Shown piece by piece: positions 8,821 through 56,631 of a DNA stretch of 64,000 nt. Positions within the stretch are counted from its first letter, which is position 1; every line of letters begins with the position of its first letter. The position numbers and the translations under genes are program-made. The DNA is from Bdellovibrionales bacterium (GTDB lineage: Bacteria; Bdellovibrionota; Bdellovibrionia; Bdellovibrionales; UBA1609), in the NCBI GenBank assembly GCA_965219095.1, contig CBDCMT010000001.1, positions 1,184,001 through 1,248,000 on the forward strand. Direction: 5' to 3'. The notes beneath the pieces were generated by a model. That model was not told where the DNA came from and searched no databases. It saw nothing but the letters and a program-made list of their open reading frames with translations.

Positions 8821-8903
8821 GGCTCCTCCCGGGAATCTGTGGGTGAAAAGTAGCTAGAAATCCCCCAAAAAGGCTCATATTAATCAAAGCAAGAGTAAGA
8901 CAT
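8821..8903 (+). mobile_element. ISL3 left-end fragment
   Basis: GGCTCCTCCCGGGAATCTGTGGG matches the ISL3 ends at 34342 and 61644. Confidence 0.85.
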
Positions 8904-9270
8904 AGCTTTGCAACTCAAGCCCTCATTGTGACAAGAGACTTATCAGCTGTACAAGCCAGTCTTGGCCATACAGATCAACAAGTAACTCAAAAATATGCAA
9001 AAACTGTGGCTTTGCTAGAGAGTAATACTGTGAAAAGGTAGCAGATTTTCTCAAAATCAAATAAAGGCTGTGCAATCACGAATCAATCACAAACAACCTT
9101 TGTTTATTTTGTTCTGAGAAAAAAAGAAAACTTTTACTGATTTTGTCTCTCAAAAAATCACGAACACATCGTAAAAAGCCTCTAAAGAAATTTATCAGGA
9201 AGAGTTAAGTTACTGAAAAAAAAGACTTTTTTCGTCTTGAAAAAAGTCTTTCTGGAAAGATTGGTAGAGA
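8896..9270 (+). mobile_element. Partial copy C of the integrase-ankyrin element (integrase 3' end plus element terminus)
   Basis: Reverse complement of ~49951-50338; encodes HSFATQAL..LGHTDQQVTQKY. Confidence 0.88.
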
Positions 9271-9474
9271 CAAGTCAGAACTATCACAGTTTATCAATGA
9301 ATCTCTAGACCTTAGTTGATCTCAGAGGATCAGCGTGCAACAAAGCCCTCCTCAACAATAAATTATCATTTTTCTATGTCGCATCTTCTCATAAATTTCC
9401 ATTTCTAAAGTTAACTAATAGTCAATTTCTCATAGTAGCTTACTTGATAGATTAGAGATTGACAAGGAGGCAGT

Positions 9475-21594: not shown

Positions 21595-22473
21595 GGTAAA
21601 TCAAAAAGACAGGTCACTGGTTTAAGCCATAATAGTGACCCTAAAGTACTTGCAGAAGGAGGTGAGCTTTTCGAGATAAATTCTAAACCCTTTAGCTGGC
21701 CTGGTTTTTAAGGCCTCAAAGGAAAAAGCAAAAAAAAGATGTAAAATAGGATTTCAAGACTTTATTTATAAATAAACCAACAAAGGAGGAAAATAAAATG
21801 TATGATCACTATATAGCCGTAGATTGGGCACAAAGTAACATGGCCATTTCAAGGATGACAGGCAAATCAAAAGATATTAAGACTATGGACACGATTTCAG
21901 ATCTTGGAAATCTTCGTGCCTATTTAAAAACTCTGAAAGGTAAGAAGATATTGACTATCGAAGAGACTACAACTTCGATAGTGGTTGTATTCAGAATTAA
22001 AGGATAGTGTTGATGAGCTCATAGTCTGTGATCCTCTTCGGAACAAACTTTTAAGTGAAGGGGCTAAAACTGATAAAATTGATGCTGAAAAACTTATTTT
22101 ATTGTTACGCTCTGGCCTTTTGAAACCAGTTTTTCACTCAGGTGATGAATTCATTTACCTTCGTAAGATTGTCAGTGGGTATGAAGATGTGGTTAAAAGA
22201 GGAGTTCGTGTTAAAAACCAAAGATCAGCTCTGTTTCGAGCTTCCCACCTTGATGCTAAGAAGCAGACTCAATTAAAACGGGCGGAAGAGATATATTTGT
22301 TCTAGAAGGCTTAGATAAAGCTATCAGTTCTTATGGGGAGGAGAAAGCACGTTATGAAGCAGAGTTTAAGAGGCTAAGTAAAAAACACAAAGATATTAGA
22401 AATCTTAATAGCATTCCAGGAATTGGTTCTATCAAGGCTATCAAGATTGTAGCCAGGGTTGTAGTGCCTCACC
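21595..22473 (+). mobile_element. IS110-family element (frameshifted recombinase from 21798), truncated by element copy B
   Basis: YIAVDWAQ, IEE, KTDKIDA and L.SIPGIG motifs across frames; ~200-bp non-coding leader. Confidence 0.85.
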
Positions 22474-22662
22474 GAACCGAGGGGTTATTTTATATAACCT
22501 CTTGAAAACACTAAAAAGAGAATAAAAACAATAACTAACACTTCCTTGTTTCAGGCCAAATGCACACACTTTTTCACAGTTTTGGATAGTTAATCACGAA
22601 CAAATCACGAACAAACTCCTCAAGAAAATGGTAGGGAGAATAAAAACCGACCCACATAACTA

Positions 22663-44821: not shown

Positions 44822-45265
44822 TTGTATATGGAAACATCTACTTCAGAAAAAAAAATACATTTTTTCGATAAATGGGGAATTTACCTTTCAGGAACTTGTG
44901 TTATTCATTGTATACTTGCTCCTATTTTTCTTATTTTTTATCCCACTTTTAGTTTGGTTTTTCTCTCTAATGAAGCACTTTTTCATTTTTTTATTTCTGT
45001 TTTTATTTTACCTAGTTTTCTTTTTGTGCTTTACTCCTATTTTAAAATTCACAAACAAAAAAAACCTTTAGTTTATCTCTTTTTAGGATTTTCTTTTATT
45101 CTTTTTTCTGCATTTTTAGCTCATGATGTTTTAGGCCACATTTCAGAATATCTTTTTTCTATTCTAGGAAGCCTTCTTATGATAAGAGGTCATTTTATCA
45201 ACCATAATCATTGCAAAGCATGTAGGACAAAACAACATTGCCTTGGAGAAAAAATCTTTAAATAA
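44822..45265 (+). CDS. MerC-family membrane protein
   Basis: DKWGIYLSGTCVIHC motif; about 4 TM helices; His/Cys-rich tail. Confidence 0.8.
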   Translation: MYMETSTSEKKIHFFDKWGIYLSGTCVIHCILAPIFLIFYPTFSLVFLSNEALFHFFISVFILPSFLFVLYSYFKIHKQKKPLVYLFLGFSFILFSAFLAHDVLGHISEYLFSILGSLLMIRGHFINHNHCKACRTKQHCLGEKIFK

Positions 45266-49463: not shown

Positions 49464-50055
49464 GAGGATGTCCCATTTCTCGGTGGAATTCTGTTCAAAA
49501 ATGGAGCAGATAAGAGGACTCCCTGGTGGATTTTTAAGTCCACCTAGGGTTTAATAAATATTTAGAATGAATTAAAAATTAAACAAAAGGAGTCCAAAAT
49601 GAAGAATACAAAAGAAAAAATATCAATTCAAGAACTATCGGATCACAAGGAGATTCAAGATGCTGTTCATAACTATATGAAGCATAGAATTCTTGACGTA
49701 ATCTACCGGATATTTAATGACGAAGTCACTAAGCTCTGTGGTCCACTATACGATCGAGAGGAAGAATGCATGCGAAATGGAAAAGCGATCCTGGGTCTGT
49801 TTATGCTCAAGGACAAAGAGTTTCGATTCGAAAGCCCAGAGTTAAAAAAGACGGAAAAGATGTCAAACTGCGAACATACTCTGCTTTGAGAAACTACGAT
49901 GTTTTCACTGAAAAGATTCAGAACCACCTTCTCCATGAAGTTTCAACAAGTCTCTACTAATCTTTTCAGCAAGACTTTTTTCAAGACGAAAAAAGTCTTT
50001 TTTTTCAGTAACTTAACTCTGCCTGATAGATTTCTTTAGAGACTTTTTTACGATG

Positions 50056-50159
50056 TGTTCGTGATTTGTTCGTGATTTTTTGAGAGACAAAATCAGTAAA
50101 AGTTTTCTTTTTTTCTCAGAACAAAATAAACAAAGGTTGTTCGTGATTTGTTCGTGATT
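50056..50159. repeat. Putative integrase arm sites: two TGTTCGTGATT doublets (third doublet at 55331-55352)
   Basis: 11-bp direct repeats at 50056/50067, 50138/50149 and 55331/55342; also in copies B and C. Confidence 0.7.
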
Positions 50160-50168
50160 GCACAACTT

Positions 50169-51296
50169 TCATTTGATTTTAAGAAAATCTGCTACCTTTT
50201 CACCAGTATTACTCTCTAGCAAAGCCACAGTTTTTGCATATTTTTGAGTTACTTGTTGATCTGTATGGCCAAGACTGGCTTGTACAGCTGATAAGTCTCT
50301 TGTCACAATGAGGGCTTGAGTTGCAAAGCTATGTCTTAAAATATGCGTTGAACGCCAAGGGAGCTTTAACGACTTAAAAGCCTTATTGTAACTTTCTTGA
50401 ACAGCATTATATTTGAGAAGGCCACCCTTTTTATTACAAAAAACAATACTGGAAGAATGGCTTTTAAATTTCCATTCAGTGAGTTTGTTTATAAGTACTT
50501 GAGGGAGCATGATCATTCTTGTAGATTCCTGTGTTTTTGTTGTTTCTGACATATAAGGGTCTTTAGTTTTATAGTCCCAGCTTACATTTCTTACAATTTT
50601 AGCTGTTTTTTTCTCAAAATCTATTTCACTCCATATAAGCCCACAAGATTCACCGATTCTAGCACCAGTTAAAATCATAAAATGAGCTAAGTACCAGTAC
50701 ACTGGATTACTGCCTTTTTTTAACTCTTCAAGCCAGTTTAAAATTTCCTCTTGTTTCATGTAATAGTCAGGACGTCTTGCTTTTAAAGGCTTATAAATGC
50801 ATTTTTCTCTATGTCTTTTTACAATAGGGACATTAAAATCAGCATCAATGTAATCACGCCACCATTGTAAGATAGAGCGAAGAAGCTTTATTTCTTTAAG
50901 CAGAGACTTTCTTCTTGGATTTTTTAATGTAGGATGTTTTAAAAACCAATCAAGCCATACATCAACAGCATGAGAAGAAAATTCGTTCATTTTGAATTTT
51001 GCAAGAGGGCTTTTTATGAAGTAATTAAATCGAAATTCATATCCTTGCCTTGTTGATTTTTTGAATTTTGGCAGACGTTCTTTCTTATATTTTTCAAGAG
51101 CCTCTAAAAAAGTAAAATCTACATAAGGATTTTTAGTTTTGTTTAGTCCTCTTTCAATTTCTGCTTTTTCTTTTTCATGCCAGAAAAAGGCATCTGATTT
51201 ATTTTCAAAGCTCTTGCTTTTAAATCTCTTTCCGTTGAGATAAATTTCAGCAACATAGAAAGCTTTGTTGTTTCTTTTACGTTTAGTTATCGACAT
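50169..51296 (-). CDS. Tyrosine recombinase/integrase
   Basis: TGARIGE (R), TKT (K), HILRH, LGH and QKY catalytic set; N-terminal arm-binding-like region. Confidence 0.95.
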   Translation of the reverse strand: MSITKRKRNNKAFYVAEIYLNGKRFKSKSFENKSDAFFWHEKEKAEIERGLNKTKNPYVDFTFLEALEKYKKERLPKFKKSTRQGYEFRFNYFIKSPLAKFKMNEFSSHAVDVWLDWFLKHPTLKNPRRKSLLKEIKLLRSILQWWRDYIDADFNVPIVKRHREKCIYKPLKARRPDYYMKQEEILNWLEELKKGSNPVYWYLAHFMILTGARIGESCGLIWSEIDFEKKTAKIVRNVSWDYKTKDPYMSETTKTQESTRMIMLPQVLINKLTEWKFKSHSSSIVFCNKKGGLLKYNAVQESYNKAFKSLKLPWRSTHILRHSFATQALIVTRDLSAVQASLGHTDQQVTQKYAKTVALLESNTGEKVADFLKIK

Positions 51297-51562
51297 GGTT
51301 TCTCCTTTCGGTTAATCCAAGCTTCAATGCTCTTTCGTCTAAAATAAGTTTTGCCTCTAATACGGCAAAAGGGTACTTCTCTTAAAGAAACCCAGTTTCT
51401 TATTGTACGAGGAGCAACACCAAACGCACACGCTAAGTCTTCCACAGTTATTAAATTGTCAAAGAACAGACTCTCATTTTTTTGAGAGCTAATAGTACTT
51501 TTTAGAGTACTATTTTGAGAATTATTTTTCAATGTTTTTTTCATTTTTTTAACTCCTTTCAA
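51287..51562 (-). CDS. Excisionase-like HTH protein
   Basis: LITVEDLA..FGVAPRTIRNWV...VPF.RI...F....IEAWI; overlaps the integrase start. Confidence 0.85.
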   Translation of the reverse strand: MKGVKKMKKTLKNNSQNSTLKSTISSQKNESLFFDNLITVEDLACAFGVAPRTIRNWVSLREVPFCRIRGKTYFRRKSIEAWINRKEKPCR

Positions 51563-51613
51563 AAAAAGCTAGAGAGCTTTTTAAAGCCCCCTAGCAGTTG
51601 ATTTTTTAGCCTT

Positions 51614-51842
51614 TTAAAAAGGCACTTCTTCTGTCTCGCTTTTTTTCTCTTTTTTTGACACTCTTCCTACAACCAAAAGCTCCCCTGAAACAGGCAAGCT
51701 TGAGAGCTTAAGAGAGAAGCCGTCTTTTGTTTTTAGAGGGAAGGCTACGCCCACCTTTAAAAACTCTGATTTTTCCTTACCGGATATGGTGAATTTACGC
51801 ACTCAAAAAAGCGTCGTAAATTTTACTTTTTTCGTTTTGCAT
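51614..51842 (-). pseudogene. Small protein with SSB-like acidic tail; 1-nt frameshift near 51803
   Basis: AAGGAG Shine-Dalgarno plus ATG at 51842; core KVGVAFP..DGFSLKL..LP; ends ETEEVPF. Confidence 0.55.
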
Positions 51843-52015
51843 TATGCTACTCCTTTCATAATTGATTTGTTATTTGTTTTTTGACCCTTTTTTACTCCTT
51901 TCTGAGCCATTAAAAAACTCAAGTTAAACTCAAAAAAAACAAGAATCTTTTAACCTGATAGAGAAAATTTTTAGCTTAAAAGTCCTAAAAATTTTCTCTA
52001 TTTTTTCTCCTCCCA

Positions 52016-52178
52016 CACCCCCTTTCCTCTTCCCACATCTATACACCCAACTCTGTGGTACCGTGACCACCCTCTCCCATACTAAAAAAAGTATGAGCGG
52101 GAGAGGGTGGTCACGGTGAAAACCTAAGGTTTTAGCAGAGTTGGGTGTGGGAAAACAAAGGGAAAAGGAAAGGGGGTG
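52016..52178. other. Long branched inverted-repeat structure
   Basis: Nested stems 52016-34/52160-78, 52043-55/52136-48 and 52060-78/52099-117. Confidence 0.8.
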
Positions 52179-52839
52179 CATGCAAGACATGTTTTTAGCA
52201 CTATAAGAAAATTCCAGAATTTTTTTAAAACCTTTCATAAAGCTCACTCCTTTAAGTTAAAAATTTGAAACAAATCTTGTGAGGTTTTGATCTTATCAAT
52301 GAGTACGGCTTGACCAACTTAACTGTCTTTCTTTTACTTGCAGGATTTTGTATCCAAAATAAAACAATATCTTTAAAAAGCTCGTTACATTCTTTTTACC
52401 TCCGATCTGTTTTTACAGAGTAGTTAAAAACGCTGAAGTTGGACCCATTCTTAAAAAGAAGTTCTCTGCTCTCCTTTTTGAAAGGTAAAAATTACATCAC
52501 TATAAAAAATTTATACAGTTTTTATAGTTTTAAAAAAAATAGTTTGTGTTTTAACTTCTTTATGATAGACTCACTTTAATGATTATGAAAACAAGGCCAG
52601 ACTGGAAGTCTAAAGTTAAGGGAGTAGGTGACAATTTTTGTCACCTTTTGAATTTTTTTTACAGTCTTAGAGGCTCAGCTTTAAATAATAAGGAGTTAAG
52701 CTTGGAATAGTTTTTGCTATATATAATTTTAGAAAGGTTAAAGCTCCTTACCTAGATATAAGAAAATAGGACTTAAAAACAAAAAAATGAAAGATAGCTA
52801 TTTGAAATAAATATCTTTCACAAATAGAAGGAGGATGTT

Positions 52840-53853
52840 ATGAAACCAAATAACAATAATATAAGGAAGGCTTTAATAGCTTTATTTACCATGGGAGCTT
52901 TAATAAGCTTAAGCTTTCCTGCTTTTTCTGAAGATGTGGATCCTGAATATGTGGATTGCTCTAAATACTTTAGAAAAGAGTTAAAAGAAGTTATTTCCGA
53001 AGGAAGAATTAATCTTTTTAGAAAAATATTAGAACAGTGTCAAATTGAAGTACCTGTGAATTATAGGATTAGTTATAAAAATGAAACTATGTTGGAATAT
53101 GCTCTTAATTCTGGTCAAAAAGAAATGGCGAAGCTTCTTTTGTCATACAAAGCCAATGCGAATAATAAATCACTACAAAATGCACTTACGAAAGCAATAA
53201 AAAATGGGGATTTAAGTTTTGCAAGAGTTCTTAATAAAAATGGTGCTGATTTAGAAAGTGTACTTATAGATGCAGCAAAGAAAGGAGATTCAAATCTTGT
53301 AAAGTCTCTTCTCGAATTTCCAGTAATAAATGTAAATGCTAAAGATGAATACGGAACGACAGCATTTATGTATGCAGCACGTTACGGACATCTCGATATT
53401 CTAGAGCTTCTTTTTAAAGTTAAAGGTTTAGATGTAAATGCTAAAGATGAATACGGAACGACAGCACTTATGTCTGCAGCACGTTACGGACATCTCGATA
53501 GTGTAAAGTTTCTTTCTGAAGTTTCAAATGTAAATGCTAAAGATAATGACGGAACGACAGCACTTATGTATGCAGCACTTTACGGACATCTCGATAGTGT
53601 AAAGTTTCTTTCTGAAGTTTCAAATGTAAATGCTAAAGATAATAACGGAATAACAGCATTTATGTATGCAGCACTTTACGGACATCTCGATAGTGTAAGA
53701 GTTCTTTTTGAAGTTTCAAATCTAAATCTAGATACTAAAGTTAATAAATACAGAACGACAGTAATAATAGCAGCATTTATGGGGGCGACATTAAAAGGAC
53801 ATTCAGATGTAGTAGACTTTCTCAAAGGAAAAGGACTGATATTGAAAAAGTAA
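52840..53853 (+). CDS. Secreted ankyrin-repeat protein, copy A
   Basis: As copy B; AAGGAGG Shine-Dalgarno. Confidence 0.92.
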   Translation: MKPNNNNIRKALIALFTMGALISLSFPAFSEDVDPEYVDCSKYFRKELKEVISEGRINLFRKILEQCQIEVPVNYRISYKNETMLEYALNSGQKEMAKLLLSYKANANNKSLQNALTKAIKNGDLSFARVLNKNGADLESVLIDAAKKGDSNLVKSLLEFPVINVNAKDEYGTTAFMYAARYGHLDILELLFKVKGLDVNAKDEYGTTALMSAARYGHLDSVKFLSEVSNVNAKDNDGTTALMYAALYGHLDSVKFLSEVSNVNAKDNNGITAFMYAALYGHLDSVRVLFEVSNLNLDTKVNKYRTTVIIAAFMGATLKGHSDVVDFLKGKGLILKK

Positions 53854-53975
53854 AGTCAGAAAACTGTATTATGAGCCTGTAAATTAAATTGTATAACTGA
53901 TTTTCTCATTTTAAATATCACTTCCTTGACAAACAGCCATGTATCCTTTTGAAGGTTGTTTTTTTATAAACCTAG

Positions 53976-55265
53976 TACACTGGAATTTTAATTTTTTCTA
54001 TGTTTAAGATTCATTTTCTTTTAATTTTAGCTATCCTTTTTTCTGTATATTGTCAATACAAGAGGCATTATGTTTTGCCATGAGGATTTTTTTTATGAAA
54101 GAAAAAACTAACCAAGGAGGGGTTATGAAAAGAAGAGTTAAAAAGAAAAGAGTCGAGATTCGATTAAAGAAGAAAGATGTAGAAGAGTTAAGTCATTTTG
54201 TAAAAAGAGCAAAAGCCAAAGCGAGAGAAATCATGAGGACCCATGTTTTACTTTTAAGCCACAAGGGTCGTTCTCCCACCGAGATATCAGAGTTTTTAGA
54301 CACGACTTTAAGAACAGTTCAAAACATAAAGGAGCGTTATAATTCAGGAGGAATCAAGAGAGCTCTTTATGATGCTCCTCGTCCTGGTCAGCCCAGAATT
54401 TTTAATGGGAAAGCCAGGGCTCATATAACAGCTTTAGCCTGTAGTAAGCCTGATGAAGGGTCTGGGGTTTGGAGTTTAAGGTTGTTGGCAGATAGGGCCG
54501 TGGAATTAGGTTATGTTGATAGTATTTCTCATACACAAGTTAGAAAGATTTTAAAAAAAAAATGAGCTCAGGCCCCATTTAAAACGTCAGTGGTGTCTGG
54601 GGAAACTTGATTCTAATTTTATTTGGCAGATGGAGAGGGTTTTAGATACTTATGAGAGAAAATACGATTTAAAAAATCCGGTTCTATGTTTTGATGAAAG
54701 GCCTTGTCAGTTGATTGATGATGTTTTGATTCCGGTTCCTGTCAGTCCTGGAAAAGAAAAAAGAGAGGATTATCATTATAAAAGAGAGGGGGTGTGTGTA
54801 GCTTTATTGGCCGTTGAGCCTTTGACAGGAAAGAGGATTGTGGAGGTGAGTCGTAGAAAGACGAAAGTAGATTATGCAAGGTTTATGAAAAAGGTGGCTG
54901 CAAAGTATAAAGGTTGTGAAAAGATCACATTGATACAAGATAATTTGAACACTCATAATCCCTCTTCATTTTATGAAAATATGAAAGCAGAGAGTGCTTT
55001 TGATTTAACAAATTGCTTTAAGATGATTTACACACCGAAGAAGGCGAGTTGGTTAAATATGGCAGAGATTGAGTTCTCAGCCCTTTCAAAGCAATGTTTA
55101 AATCGTCGTATAGGAAAATTCTCTAAGATGGAAAAAGAGATCACAGCTTGAGCAAAAAATAGAAATAAAAAAAGGATAAAAATAAACTGGCAATTTACGA
55201 ACACTAAAGCAAGAGAAAAATTTTCATCCTCATATAAGAATATGAAAAATTAAAATTCCAATGTA
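53976..55265 (+). mobile_element. IS630 element type D (frameshift at A-run ~54555; premature TGA at 55149)
   Basis: IRs TACA.TGGAATTTTAATTTTT; CTAG flanks; FDERP and QDNLNTH motifs. Confidence 0.9.
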
Positions 55266-56458
55266 CTAGTACAGCATAACATAGTTATGTGGGTCGGTTG
55301 CTATTCTCCCTACCATTTTCTTGAGGAGTTTGTTCGTGATTTGTTCGTGATTAACTATCCAAAACTGTGAAAAAGTGTGTGCATTTGGCCTGAAACAAGG
55401 AAGTGTTAGTTATTGTTTTTATTCTCTTTTTAGTGTTTTCAAGAGGTTATATAAAATAACCCCTCGGTTCAACAAGGGACTACGATCCTCTTTTAGAGGA
55501 GATCTCTGGTGGCACAGGAGTTAAGAAGAGCTCTGTTTCTAGAGCTTTTGTAAATTCCTCTAAGAAGGCTTTAGATGAGATGAACTCTAAGGGCTTGTCT
55601 GAGCATGAGTTTGTTTCAGTCATGATAGATGGGTAGGCTTTGGAGATCGTACAGTGGTGCTTGCTTTAGGCATCGACGTGACGGGCAAAAAACACATTAT
55701 AGGGTTACGAGAAGGAACTACAGAAAATTGCGAGCTGACAAAAGATCTTTTAGAGAACCTTGTTTCTAGAGGTATGGATTCAGATAAGGGCTATCTTTTT
55801 ATTATTGATGGTTCTAAAGCCCTAAGGAAGGCTATCAAGGCAGTTTGGGGAAAAAAGTCTGTTGTTCAACGTTGCATTCGTCACAAAGAAAGAAATATCC
55901 TCAATTATTTGCCAAAAGAAAGACATCAAGAGTTTCGCATTCGTTGGAAAAGACTTCATGGTTTAGTAGATTATGAATCGGCTTTGAAAGAGCATGAGGA
56001 GTTAGTTTGTTGGTTGAAACAGATCAACCATTCAGCTTTAGAATCTCTTGAAGAAGCTTGTAAGGAGACTTTGACTGTGATTCGTCTTAAATACCCCCTC
56101 CTTGAAAAAGACTTTACTGTCAATTCTATAGAGTCCATGTTTTCCTACACAAGGTATAGGACAAGGAGAGTTAAGAACTGGAAGAAAGGAGCAGACCAAG
56201 TGAGTCGTTGGGCTGCTGTTACTCTCTTTGATGCTGAGAAAAGATTTAAACGAATCAGAGGCTTTATGTATTTAAAAAACTTTAAAGAAAACTTAGAAAA
56301 AATGGTTGCAAAACAAAGAAAGGTCGCTTAAACATGAAATCGTCCTCTAGAATTCCACCGAGAAATGGGACATCCTCGTTTCCAGTCAAAGCTAAGAAAA
56401 ACAAAATACTTGATTTAAAACAAAAATCTTTCTATAAAGGAAGAAGAAAGTTTTTTGC

Positions 56459-56534
56459 AGGGGGTTAGCTCAGCTGGTAGAGCACCACCCTTACAAGGTG
56501 GATGTCATCGGTTCGATTCCGGTACTCCCTACCA
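56459..56534 (+). tRNA. tRNA-Val(TAC)
   Basis: Cloverleaf; CCACC-CTTACAA-GGTGG anticodon arm; CCA end. Confidence 0.96.
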
Positions 56535-56631
56535 ATCTTTCCAGCAAGACTTTTTTCAGTAAATTAACTCTGCCTGATATAGTGCTTAATGCAATCTAAA
56601 TTTTATCTATGAAAAGTTTAAAGGAGGCAAA

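Follow-up and report, generated by a model that had tools for sequence, protein, structure and literature searches.

The element and its genomic setting

The window analysed here is a stretch of 64,000 nucleotides from the genome of a Bdellovibrionales bacterium (G000; positions prefixed C1 or C2 refer to its contigs, all others to the window). It contains a mobile element, copy A, which lies inside an insertion sequence of the IS256 family and is probably a small, mobilizable integrative element. Single ends of two further copies (B and C) and a tRNA-Val gene are found in the same window, and the features that matter for what follows are these:

8896..9288, minus strand: left end of copy C, with an IS481 tip (9278-9288), the 7-mer TGACTTG (9271-9277), the left arm and a 3' fragment of the integrase gene
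22461..22662, minus strand: copy B, right end, within a transposase gene of the IS110 family, with the 7-mer CGGTGAG (22468-22474)
49464..49943, plus strand: left part of the host IS256-family copy (terminal repeat at C2:1233464; empty sister copies exist)
49937..49957, plus strand: attL core of copy A, GAAG TTT [CAACAAG, 49944-49950] TCT CTAC
about 49951-55469: body of copy A, between attL and attR of the IS256 host
50055..50076, plus strand: arm-type direct-repeat pair 1, left arm, a putative integrase arm site
50137..50158, plus strand: arm-type direct-repeat pair 2, left arm, seen as a sequence repeat
50169..51296, minus strand: tyrosine integrase, 375 aa (PF00589, E=1.6e-22; model pLDDT 78.5)
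51287..51544, minus strand: excisionase-like HTH protein, 85 aa (HTH_17, E=1.2e-10; phrog_66 excisionase, E=2.1e-8)
52060..52118, no strand: long palindrome with GACCACCCT, seen in the sequence, putatively oriT-like
52840..53853, plus strand: ankyrin-repeat cargo gene
53972..55265 (approximate limits), plus strand: IS630-type insertion within the element (HTH_32 and DDE_3)
55293..55315, plus strand: internal att-like core in the right arm, GTCG GTT [GCTATTC] TCC CTAC CA
55330..55351, plus strand: arm-type direct-repeat pair, right arm, seen as a sequence repeat
55463..55483, plus strand: attR core of copy A, CTCG GTT [CAACAAG, 55470-55476] GGA CTAC
55477..56377, plus strand: right part of the host IS256 copy (Transposase_mut match)
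56459..56580, plus strand: tRNA-Val(TAC), the primary target, with the 7-mer CCGGTAC at 56519-56525 and a short left-arm remnant after it

The left half of attL is IS256 sequence and its right half belongs to the element, as a copy of the tRNA-Val 3' end; attR has the element on its left and IS256 on its right. Paired direct repeats occur in both arms and are putative integrase arm sites. Residues R213, H318, R321, H344 and Y353 of the integrase are invariant in alignment A1, and the structure model predicts an N-terminal domain of three strands and a helix at residues 2-51, a region that had no match to the Pfam arm-domain. The predicted model also includes a beta-hairpin in the catalytic domain at 236-251 (strands 236-240 and 247-251) that aligns with the Tn1549 integrase (6EN0) and with PDB 3NKH, and the same hairpin is present in the aligned integrases of strictly tRNA-targeted relatives. 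No relaxase was found among the copy A reading frames, nor were conjugation genes found in this copy.

Most other copies of the element are fragments broken by insertion sequences, in a genome where about 32% of sampled 21-mers are repeated. The IS630-type insertion is missing from the other copies, which read straight across the joint 53971-55266. Nine copies carry the internal right-arm core, whose 7-mer is more variable, and at C1:380373 a left end is fused to this core with an additional A, an arrangement also present in run X3. A search for the element's right arm in 108 other family genomes gave no match, and a single-protein scan of genome contigs was likewise negative. Integrase paralogues of 44-47% identity are placed tail-to-tail with the ends of pilin-like genes at C1:412101, 424694, 450114, 468943, 481170, 499056 and 504889 and at C2:2315473, and four of these loci share the oriT-like region with element A. 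A MerC-family gene at 44822-45265 is unrelated to the element.

The crossover and its tRNA origin

The repeat that flanks copy A is TTCAACAAG, and the crossover within it is the 7-mer CAACAAG. The original prediction had read the junctions as TTC-N6-NNN-CTAC with a variable 6-bp spacer, and the strings on which it relied are all in place (TTC at 49942-44, AACAAG at 49945-50 and 55471-76, the IS110 junction at 22461-76 and the tRNA-Val end at 56517-32). The spacer, though, is one base longer. Because the IS481 terminal repeat is targeted in both orientations, with symmetric junctions (ATAG-TTG-[7]-TCT-CTAC on the left, GTT-[7]-CAA-CTAT on the right), the overlap must be 7 bp within a symmetric core, RTAG-NNN-[7]-NNN-CTAY. 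This symmetry rules out a 6-bp spacer, as do five complete relatives that agree on the longer one.

Related integrase loci point to where this core came from. Of 66 such loci, in records mostly from Bdellovibrionales or Oligoflexia, 17 lacked the integrase C-terminus or downstream DNA and were dropped; a tRNA 3' end, in some cases that of tRNA-Val(TAC), adjoins 35 of the 49 scorable ones. Relatives occur at the same tRNA-Val, and the left end of the element itself matches the end of this gene. Wherever both ends lie on one locus (5/5 relatives) they carry an identical 7-mer, which is that of the tRNA, and tRNA identity begins at the 7-mer or up to 3 bases before it. Judged from these sequence comparisons, the home site of the integrase is the 3' end of tRNA-Val(TAC). 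The tRNA-matched 7-mers of the relatives, together with the symmetry of the IS481 junctions, imply that the CTAC of the element is the tRNA-Val acceptor end that it carries along, and that TTC is made up of the element's T-loop-like end and the first base of the overlap.

Targets across the genome

A BLAST search of the complete 3.11-Mb genome with both ends of the element yielded 7 left and 9 right junctions. The tRNA-Val target has the 7-mer CCGGTAC. The rebuilt IS256 site proved real, since all 12 empty copies scored read CAACAAG, the 7-mer of copy A. The IS110 target has CGGTGAG, which is also what empty IS110 copies read. IS481 ends supply YRACTTR in the forward orientation (5 left and 2 right junctions) and two further right junctions in reverse. 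An intergenic repeat with TGAGRTG accounts for 2 right junctions and a relic, and was hit or copied about three times. The 7-mer TGACTCG belongs to a second IS110-like fragment, which we take from its peptide to be of that family. Every secondary target has empty sister copies, and all 15 non-tRNA junctions break at one nucleotide register. In 5/7 targets one half-site agrees with CTAC at 3-4 of its 4 bases; the intergenic repeat and a low-copy site have no such half-site.

Against this collection the proposed shared motif did not hold. Only 4/16 junctions fit TTC-N6-NNN-CTAC, and these are the four in-window junctions from which it had been built; as a target consensus it fits just 2/7 rebuilt targets (IS256 and the tRNA). 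The bare string is common, with 344 matches in the genome and 10 in the window. Copy C had been described as a partial fit, and its TTC is indeed one base out of register. The suggestion that the element supplies half of the motif at the IS110 site was borne out: empty copies read ...TTTAAAT-CGGTGAG-GCA-CTAC, and since they have AAT-C at this place the TT of the junction comes from the element. The right half of the motif at the tRNA target may likewise be element-supplied.

Copy C lies in an IS481-type terminal inverted repeat. A dif/xrs site and the att site of a second integrase were considered as the origin of the TGTGATAGTTG flanks and rejected, as the flanks are IS481-type terminal repeats. 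At C2:4040, 1532917, 2216166 and 2384707 pairs of fused IS481 tips form 22-bp palindromes, which are probably remnants of nearly precise excision. At C2:2050836-2069513, two right halves of the element face outward around some 10 kb of host genes, and their outer flanks, with 7-mers that differ by one base, jointly rebuild a single IS481 end.

The shared register has a bearing on how far the integrase was involved at all. On one account the enzyme is strictly homology-dependent, and the 7-mer was altered only by rare events of other kinds, such as transposition of insertion sequences next to the element's ends, deletion at microhomologies or recombination between copies; most junctions would then be relics of rearrangement. 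The repeated state of about a third of the genome, the broken copies, the possibly hybrid IS256 host described below and a deletion from the element interior to a repeat at C1:678872 are all of a piece with this account. It is nevertheless very unlikely, the least likely of the readings weighed here, given that the 15 non-tRNA junctions share a register, use IS481 ends in both orientations and have a CTAY half-site at the spacing proper to the integrase, which is not what deletions or transposase insertions would yield.

Which 7-mer sits at each junction

Each junction can be asked whether it carries the 7-mer of its target or one brought in by the element. Thirteen of the 16 carry the 7-mer of their own target family, one of them being the tRNA itself. 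The other three deviate, C2:1011674 by one extra G, C2:1317516 by one mismatch and C2:110568 through the loss of about 36 bp of flank. None of the 16 has a clearly foreign 7-mer, and the tRNA 7-mer or that of another class was found at no secondary junction among them. Nor were footprint 7-mers of past excision seen in empty copies of IS256 (12/12), IS110 (14/14) or the intergenic repeat (23/23).

This lack of foreign 7-mers is a real anomaly, though weaker than it looks. Donor and target are indistinguishable at nine of the 16 junctions, those in IS481 ends; the single junctions that do inform belong to four right-end classes; and both outer ends exist in copy A alone. A second copy that is nearly complete (C1:374958-380436) stops at the internal core and so cannot speak to duplication, and left and right halves elsewhere cannot be paired by their IS flanks because the inner halves are truncated. 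Contigs of three runs from one study contain both the empty IS256 joint and the internal-core fusion; among the matches listed from these contigs, which drop rare forms, there was neither an outer attP joint nor a new site. Two junctions and one empty IS481 end (C2:1011674, C2:642274 and C1:380373) have an additional base on the right-hand edge of the 7-mer, which may mark slipped ligation.

The pattern resembles a target-site duplication, as the original prediction noted of copy A. A tyrosine integrase could conceivably make a true 7-bp duplication at secondary sites if subunits on the strong core ligated the target strands while those on the weak half-site failed on the donor overhangs, so that nick or flap repair copied the target 7-mer to both sides in a single event. 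Besides the target-type 7-mers at 13/16 junctions and the absent footprints, this would account for copy A, which has the same 7-mer on both sides and whose two 200-bp flanks are both closest to the same sister IS256 copy. It would also suit an element in a related genome, G016, which has a tRNA-Ala-type left arm and CGACATA at both junctions, a 7-mer that departs from that of the tRNA at 4/7 bases and keeps both edge bases. The alignment of the integrase hairpin with that of Tn1549 is a further point in its favor.

Even so, such a duplication seems unlikely. Copy A is the only complete copy in this genome, and its IS256 host, having no matching target duplication of its own, may be a hybrid. 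(The right flank of the host, at window position 56377, matches the left flank of an IS256 end at C2:1264558, 24 kb downstream, which indicates a rearrangement that included tRNA-Val.) For both copy A and the G016 element sister sites with the same 7-mer exist, in G016 only 2.2 kb away. The 7-mers are homologous to one another, as set out below. Each of the four single junctions that inform on this is a right end, a result with a chance of 1/16 under coin-flip segregation. Finally, relatives do show donor-type junctions: right arms joined to the ancestral tRNA 7-mer beside a foreign flank occur twice in G058 and once in G107, and no partner left end turned up for any of these. In G112, by contrast, the 7-mer at a right end has changed. 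Duplication as a rule is thus not upheld. A fuller version is improbable to the same degree: the enzyme would be a transposase of the tyrosine-recombinase type, for which a single CTAY half-site and homology at the overlap edge are required, every jump would give attP a new overlap, and no footprint would stay behind.

Two further features of the relatives deserve mention. In G016, a 2.2-kb segment at C1:869490-871699, which lies upstream of a type IV pilin gene, has a palindromic att-like site at either end, with the 7-mers inverted, and is possibly invertible. Left arms in G016 and G111 (L234, L236 and L240-L242) are preceded by perfect hairpin cores with non-tRNA 7-mers, which in G016 are present in both orientations.

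The 7-mers resemble one another

If the integrase were indifferent to homology, the 7-mers should be unrelated. Their mean pairwise distance is 4.05, compared with 5.21+-0.26 for random genome 7-mers (p=0.0002, post hoc), and a spanning-tree test gives p=0.038 (also post hoc). YRA, with which the IS481 spacers begin, opens the 7-mer in three of the four independent secondary classes (P=0.0015, post hoc), and G closes it in all four (P=0.0008, post hoc). The similarity and edge tests alike were chosen once the data had been seen. With that understood, the 7-mers appear not to be free, their mutual likeness being above chance (p about 2e-4, post hoc). There are exceptions: CGGTGAG of IS110 is an outlier with at least 4 mismatches to every other class, and the tRNA 7-mer ends in C.

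The proposal that the element integrates independently of homology at a relaxed core must therefore be divided. Several targets, different crossovers and a relaxed core all stand; independence from homology does not, the 7-mers being alike (p=0.0002). Transposition in the manner of Tn916 or Tn1549, with coupling sequences brought in by the element and copy A derived from another IS256 copy, has in its favor that overlaps differ by as many as 6 of 7 bases, that the beta-hairpin called Tn916-typical (in the excerpted text of PMC5871717) is present, and that C2:110568 may carry a donor 7-mer on its displaced flank. It would lead one to expect foreign 7-mers at about half of the junctions, where none clearly is, and random 7-mers; the ends, moreover, are tRNA-derived and not inverted repeats with A/T tracts, and the hairpin is shared with strictly tRNA-targeted relatives and PDB 3NKH. 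This mode of movement is accordingly rated quite unlikely, a shade less probable than duplication.

A model for the change of target

The reading we prefer, with a probability of roughly 0.6, is lambda-like integration at secondary sites with partial overlap homology, followed by capture of the target 7-mer and hops between sister repeats. It looks like ordinary site-specific recombination that has been relaxed, and not like new chemistry. The enzyme would be a lambda-type, arm-binding tyrosine integrase at home at the tRNA-Val(TAC) 3' end, with the core RTAG-NNN-[7]-NNN-CTAY. A secondary site would need roughly one good core half-site and identity at the first three or so overlap bases, usually with the last base as well, and central mismatches would be tolerated. 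The first exchange would take place at the left edge and the mismatch would be resolved by replication, leaving the target 7-mer at attR and the donor 7-mer at attL. This rule of right for target and left for donor would follow from strand order, and was prompted by what Rutkai 2003 reportedly describes.

Later excision would then pass the target 7-mer to the circle, an overlap capture that turns the sister copies of the repeat into fully homologous targets and puts the same 7-mer on both sides, as in copy A. The apparent duplication there would be the normal overlap repeat of attL and attR. IS481 ends, with their 9 junctions, would have served as a hub from which the element reached IS256, the intergenic repeat and the second IS110-type site. 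This explanation is favored because 35/49 relatives lie at tRNA ends with equal 7-mers in 5/5, because the 7-mers resemble one another and share YRA and G edges, because the IS481 spacer C.....G is used both ways, and because donor-type junctions occur in the family (G058, G107).

Better-studied integrases lend the individual steps some precedent, as far as the available excerpts of these sources go. The first exchange of lambda requires homology in the first 3 bp, and CTnBST requires homology at one end only (PMC2297512). IntDOT requires edge identity only, and a symmetric overlap works in both orientations (PMC2817482). The mv4 integrase uses degenerate cores and requires overlap identity (bioRxiv 2023.11.06.565760), and secondary sites have been proposed as a route to specificity switching (PMC8371274, citing Rutkai 2006).

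Some observations weigh against the preferred explanation. ICEBs1 at mismatched sites has different left and right crossovers and excises poorly (excerpt of PMC3715440), from which one would expect mixed copies to persist, and none is seen here. The empty copies are free of excision footprints, the IS110 7-mer CGGTGAG is an outlier, and the C at the end of the tRNA 7-mer breaks the edge rule. The donor-type right junctions of the relatives also run counter to a strict bias of target to the right.

Comparison with known systems

Islands and integrative mobilizable elements at tRNA 3' ends (SGI1-like elements; phage mv4 at tRNA-Ser) are a close match. They have arm repeats, a xis-like gene and a tRNA 3' fragment in common with the element, and also a 7-bp overlap between inverted cores with identical attL and attR overlaps in relatives (excerpts of PMC2297512 and bioRxiv 2023.11.06.565760). 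Copy A has intact catalytic residues, a tRNA-derived att core and equal 7-bp overlaps at attL and attR, as befits a tRNA element. What sets it apart from the islands is that a single lineage has fixed at least 5 different non-tRNA overlaps, each within a multi-copy repeat. The secondary sites of lambda and ICEBs1 are similar in their degenerate cores and in the homology kept at the left of the overlap. At mismatched sites ICEBs1, however, is left with crossovers that differ between its two sides, and it goes back to attB (PMC3715440, in excerpt), whereas here the ends are equal and the lineage stayed at secondary sites.

The CTnDOT integrase IntDOT and CTnBST share with this enzyme a 7-bp overlap with a conserved edge and variable center, and the use of a symmetric overlap in both orientations (PMC2817482, as excerpted), yet IntDOT carries 5-bp coupling sequences from site to site, and nothing at the 16 junctions is clearly a coupling sequence of the donor. 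The likeness to Tn916 and Tn1549 lies in the hairpin insertion in the catalytic domain and in multiple targets (PMC5871717, in part). Those elements have A/T-rich terminal inverted repeats and different couplings at their ends; here the termini are CTCG GTT and TCT CTAC, and the ends of copy A are equal. In the strand-biased circularizing integrative elements (SEs) too a short sequence derived from the flank travels with the circle, but these mark the right flank with a 6-bp footprint of the donor and need IntA, IntB, Tfp and Srap (excerpt of PMC10782965), whereas here there is one integrase and the right junctions are of target type. The element thus belongs neither to the Tn916 group nor to the SEs; it works as known tRNA-targeting integrative elements do at secondary sites.

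Significance

What is unusual is that at least five new overlaps have been fixed, each of them in a multi-copy repeat, and that this genome retains no donor-type junction. In the literature searched, which fell short of most subscription papers and was in part available as excerpts, no bacterial tyrosine integrase was described as duplicating its target. Duplication, if true, would be an outcome new to tyrosine recombinases, and such elements would resemble DDE transposons in annotation. On the preferred reading, the element can be regarded as a natural record of a tRNA-specific integrase changing its target, for which multi-copy insertion sequences provide landing sites that are both safe and repeated. 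The switching of specificity at secondary sites becomes testable here with a single enzyme and its seven known targets.
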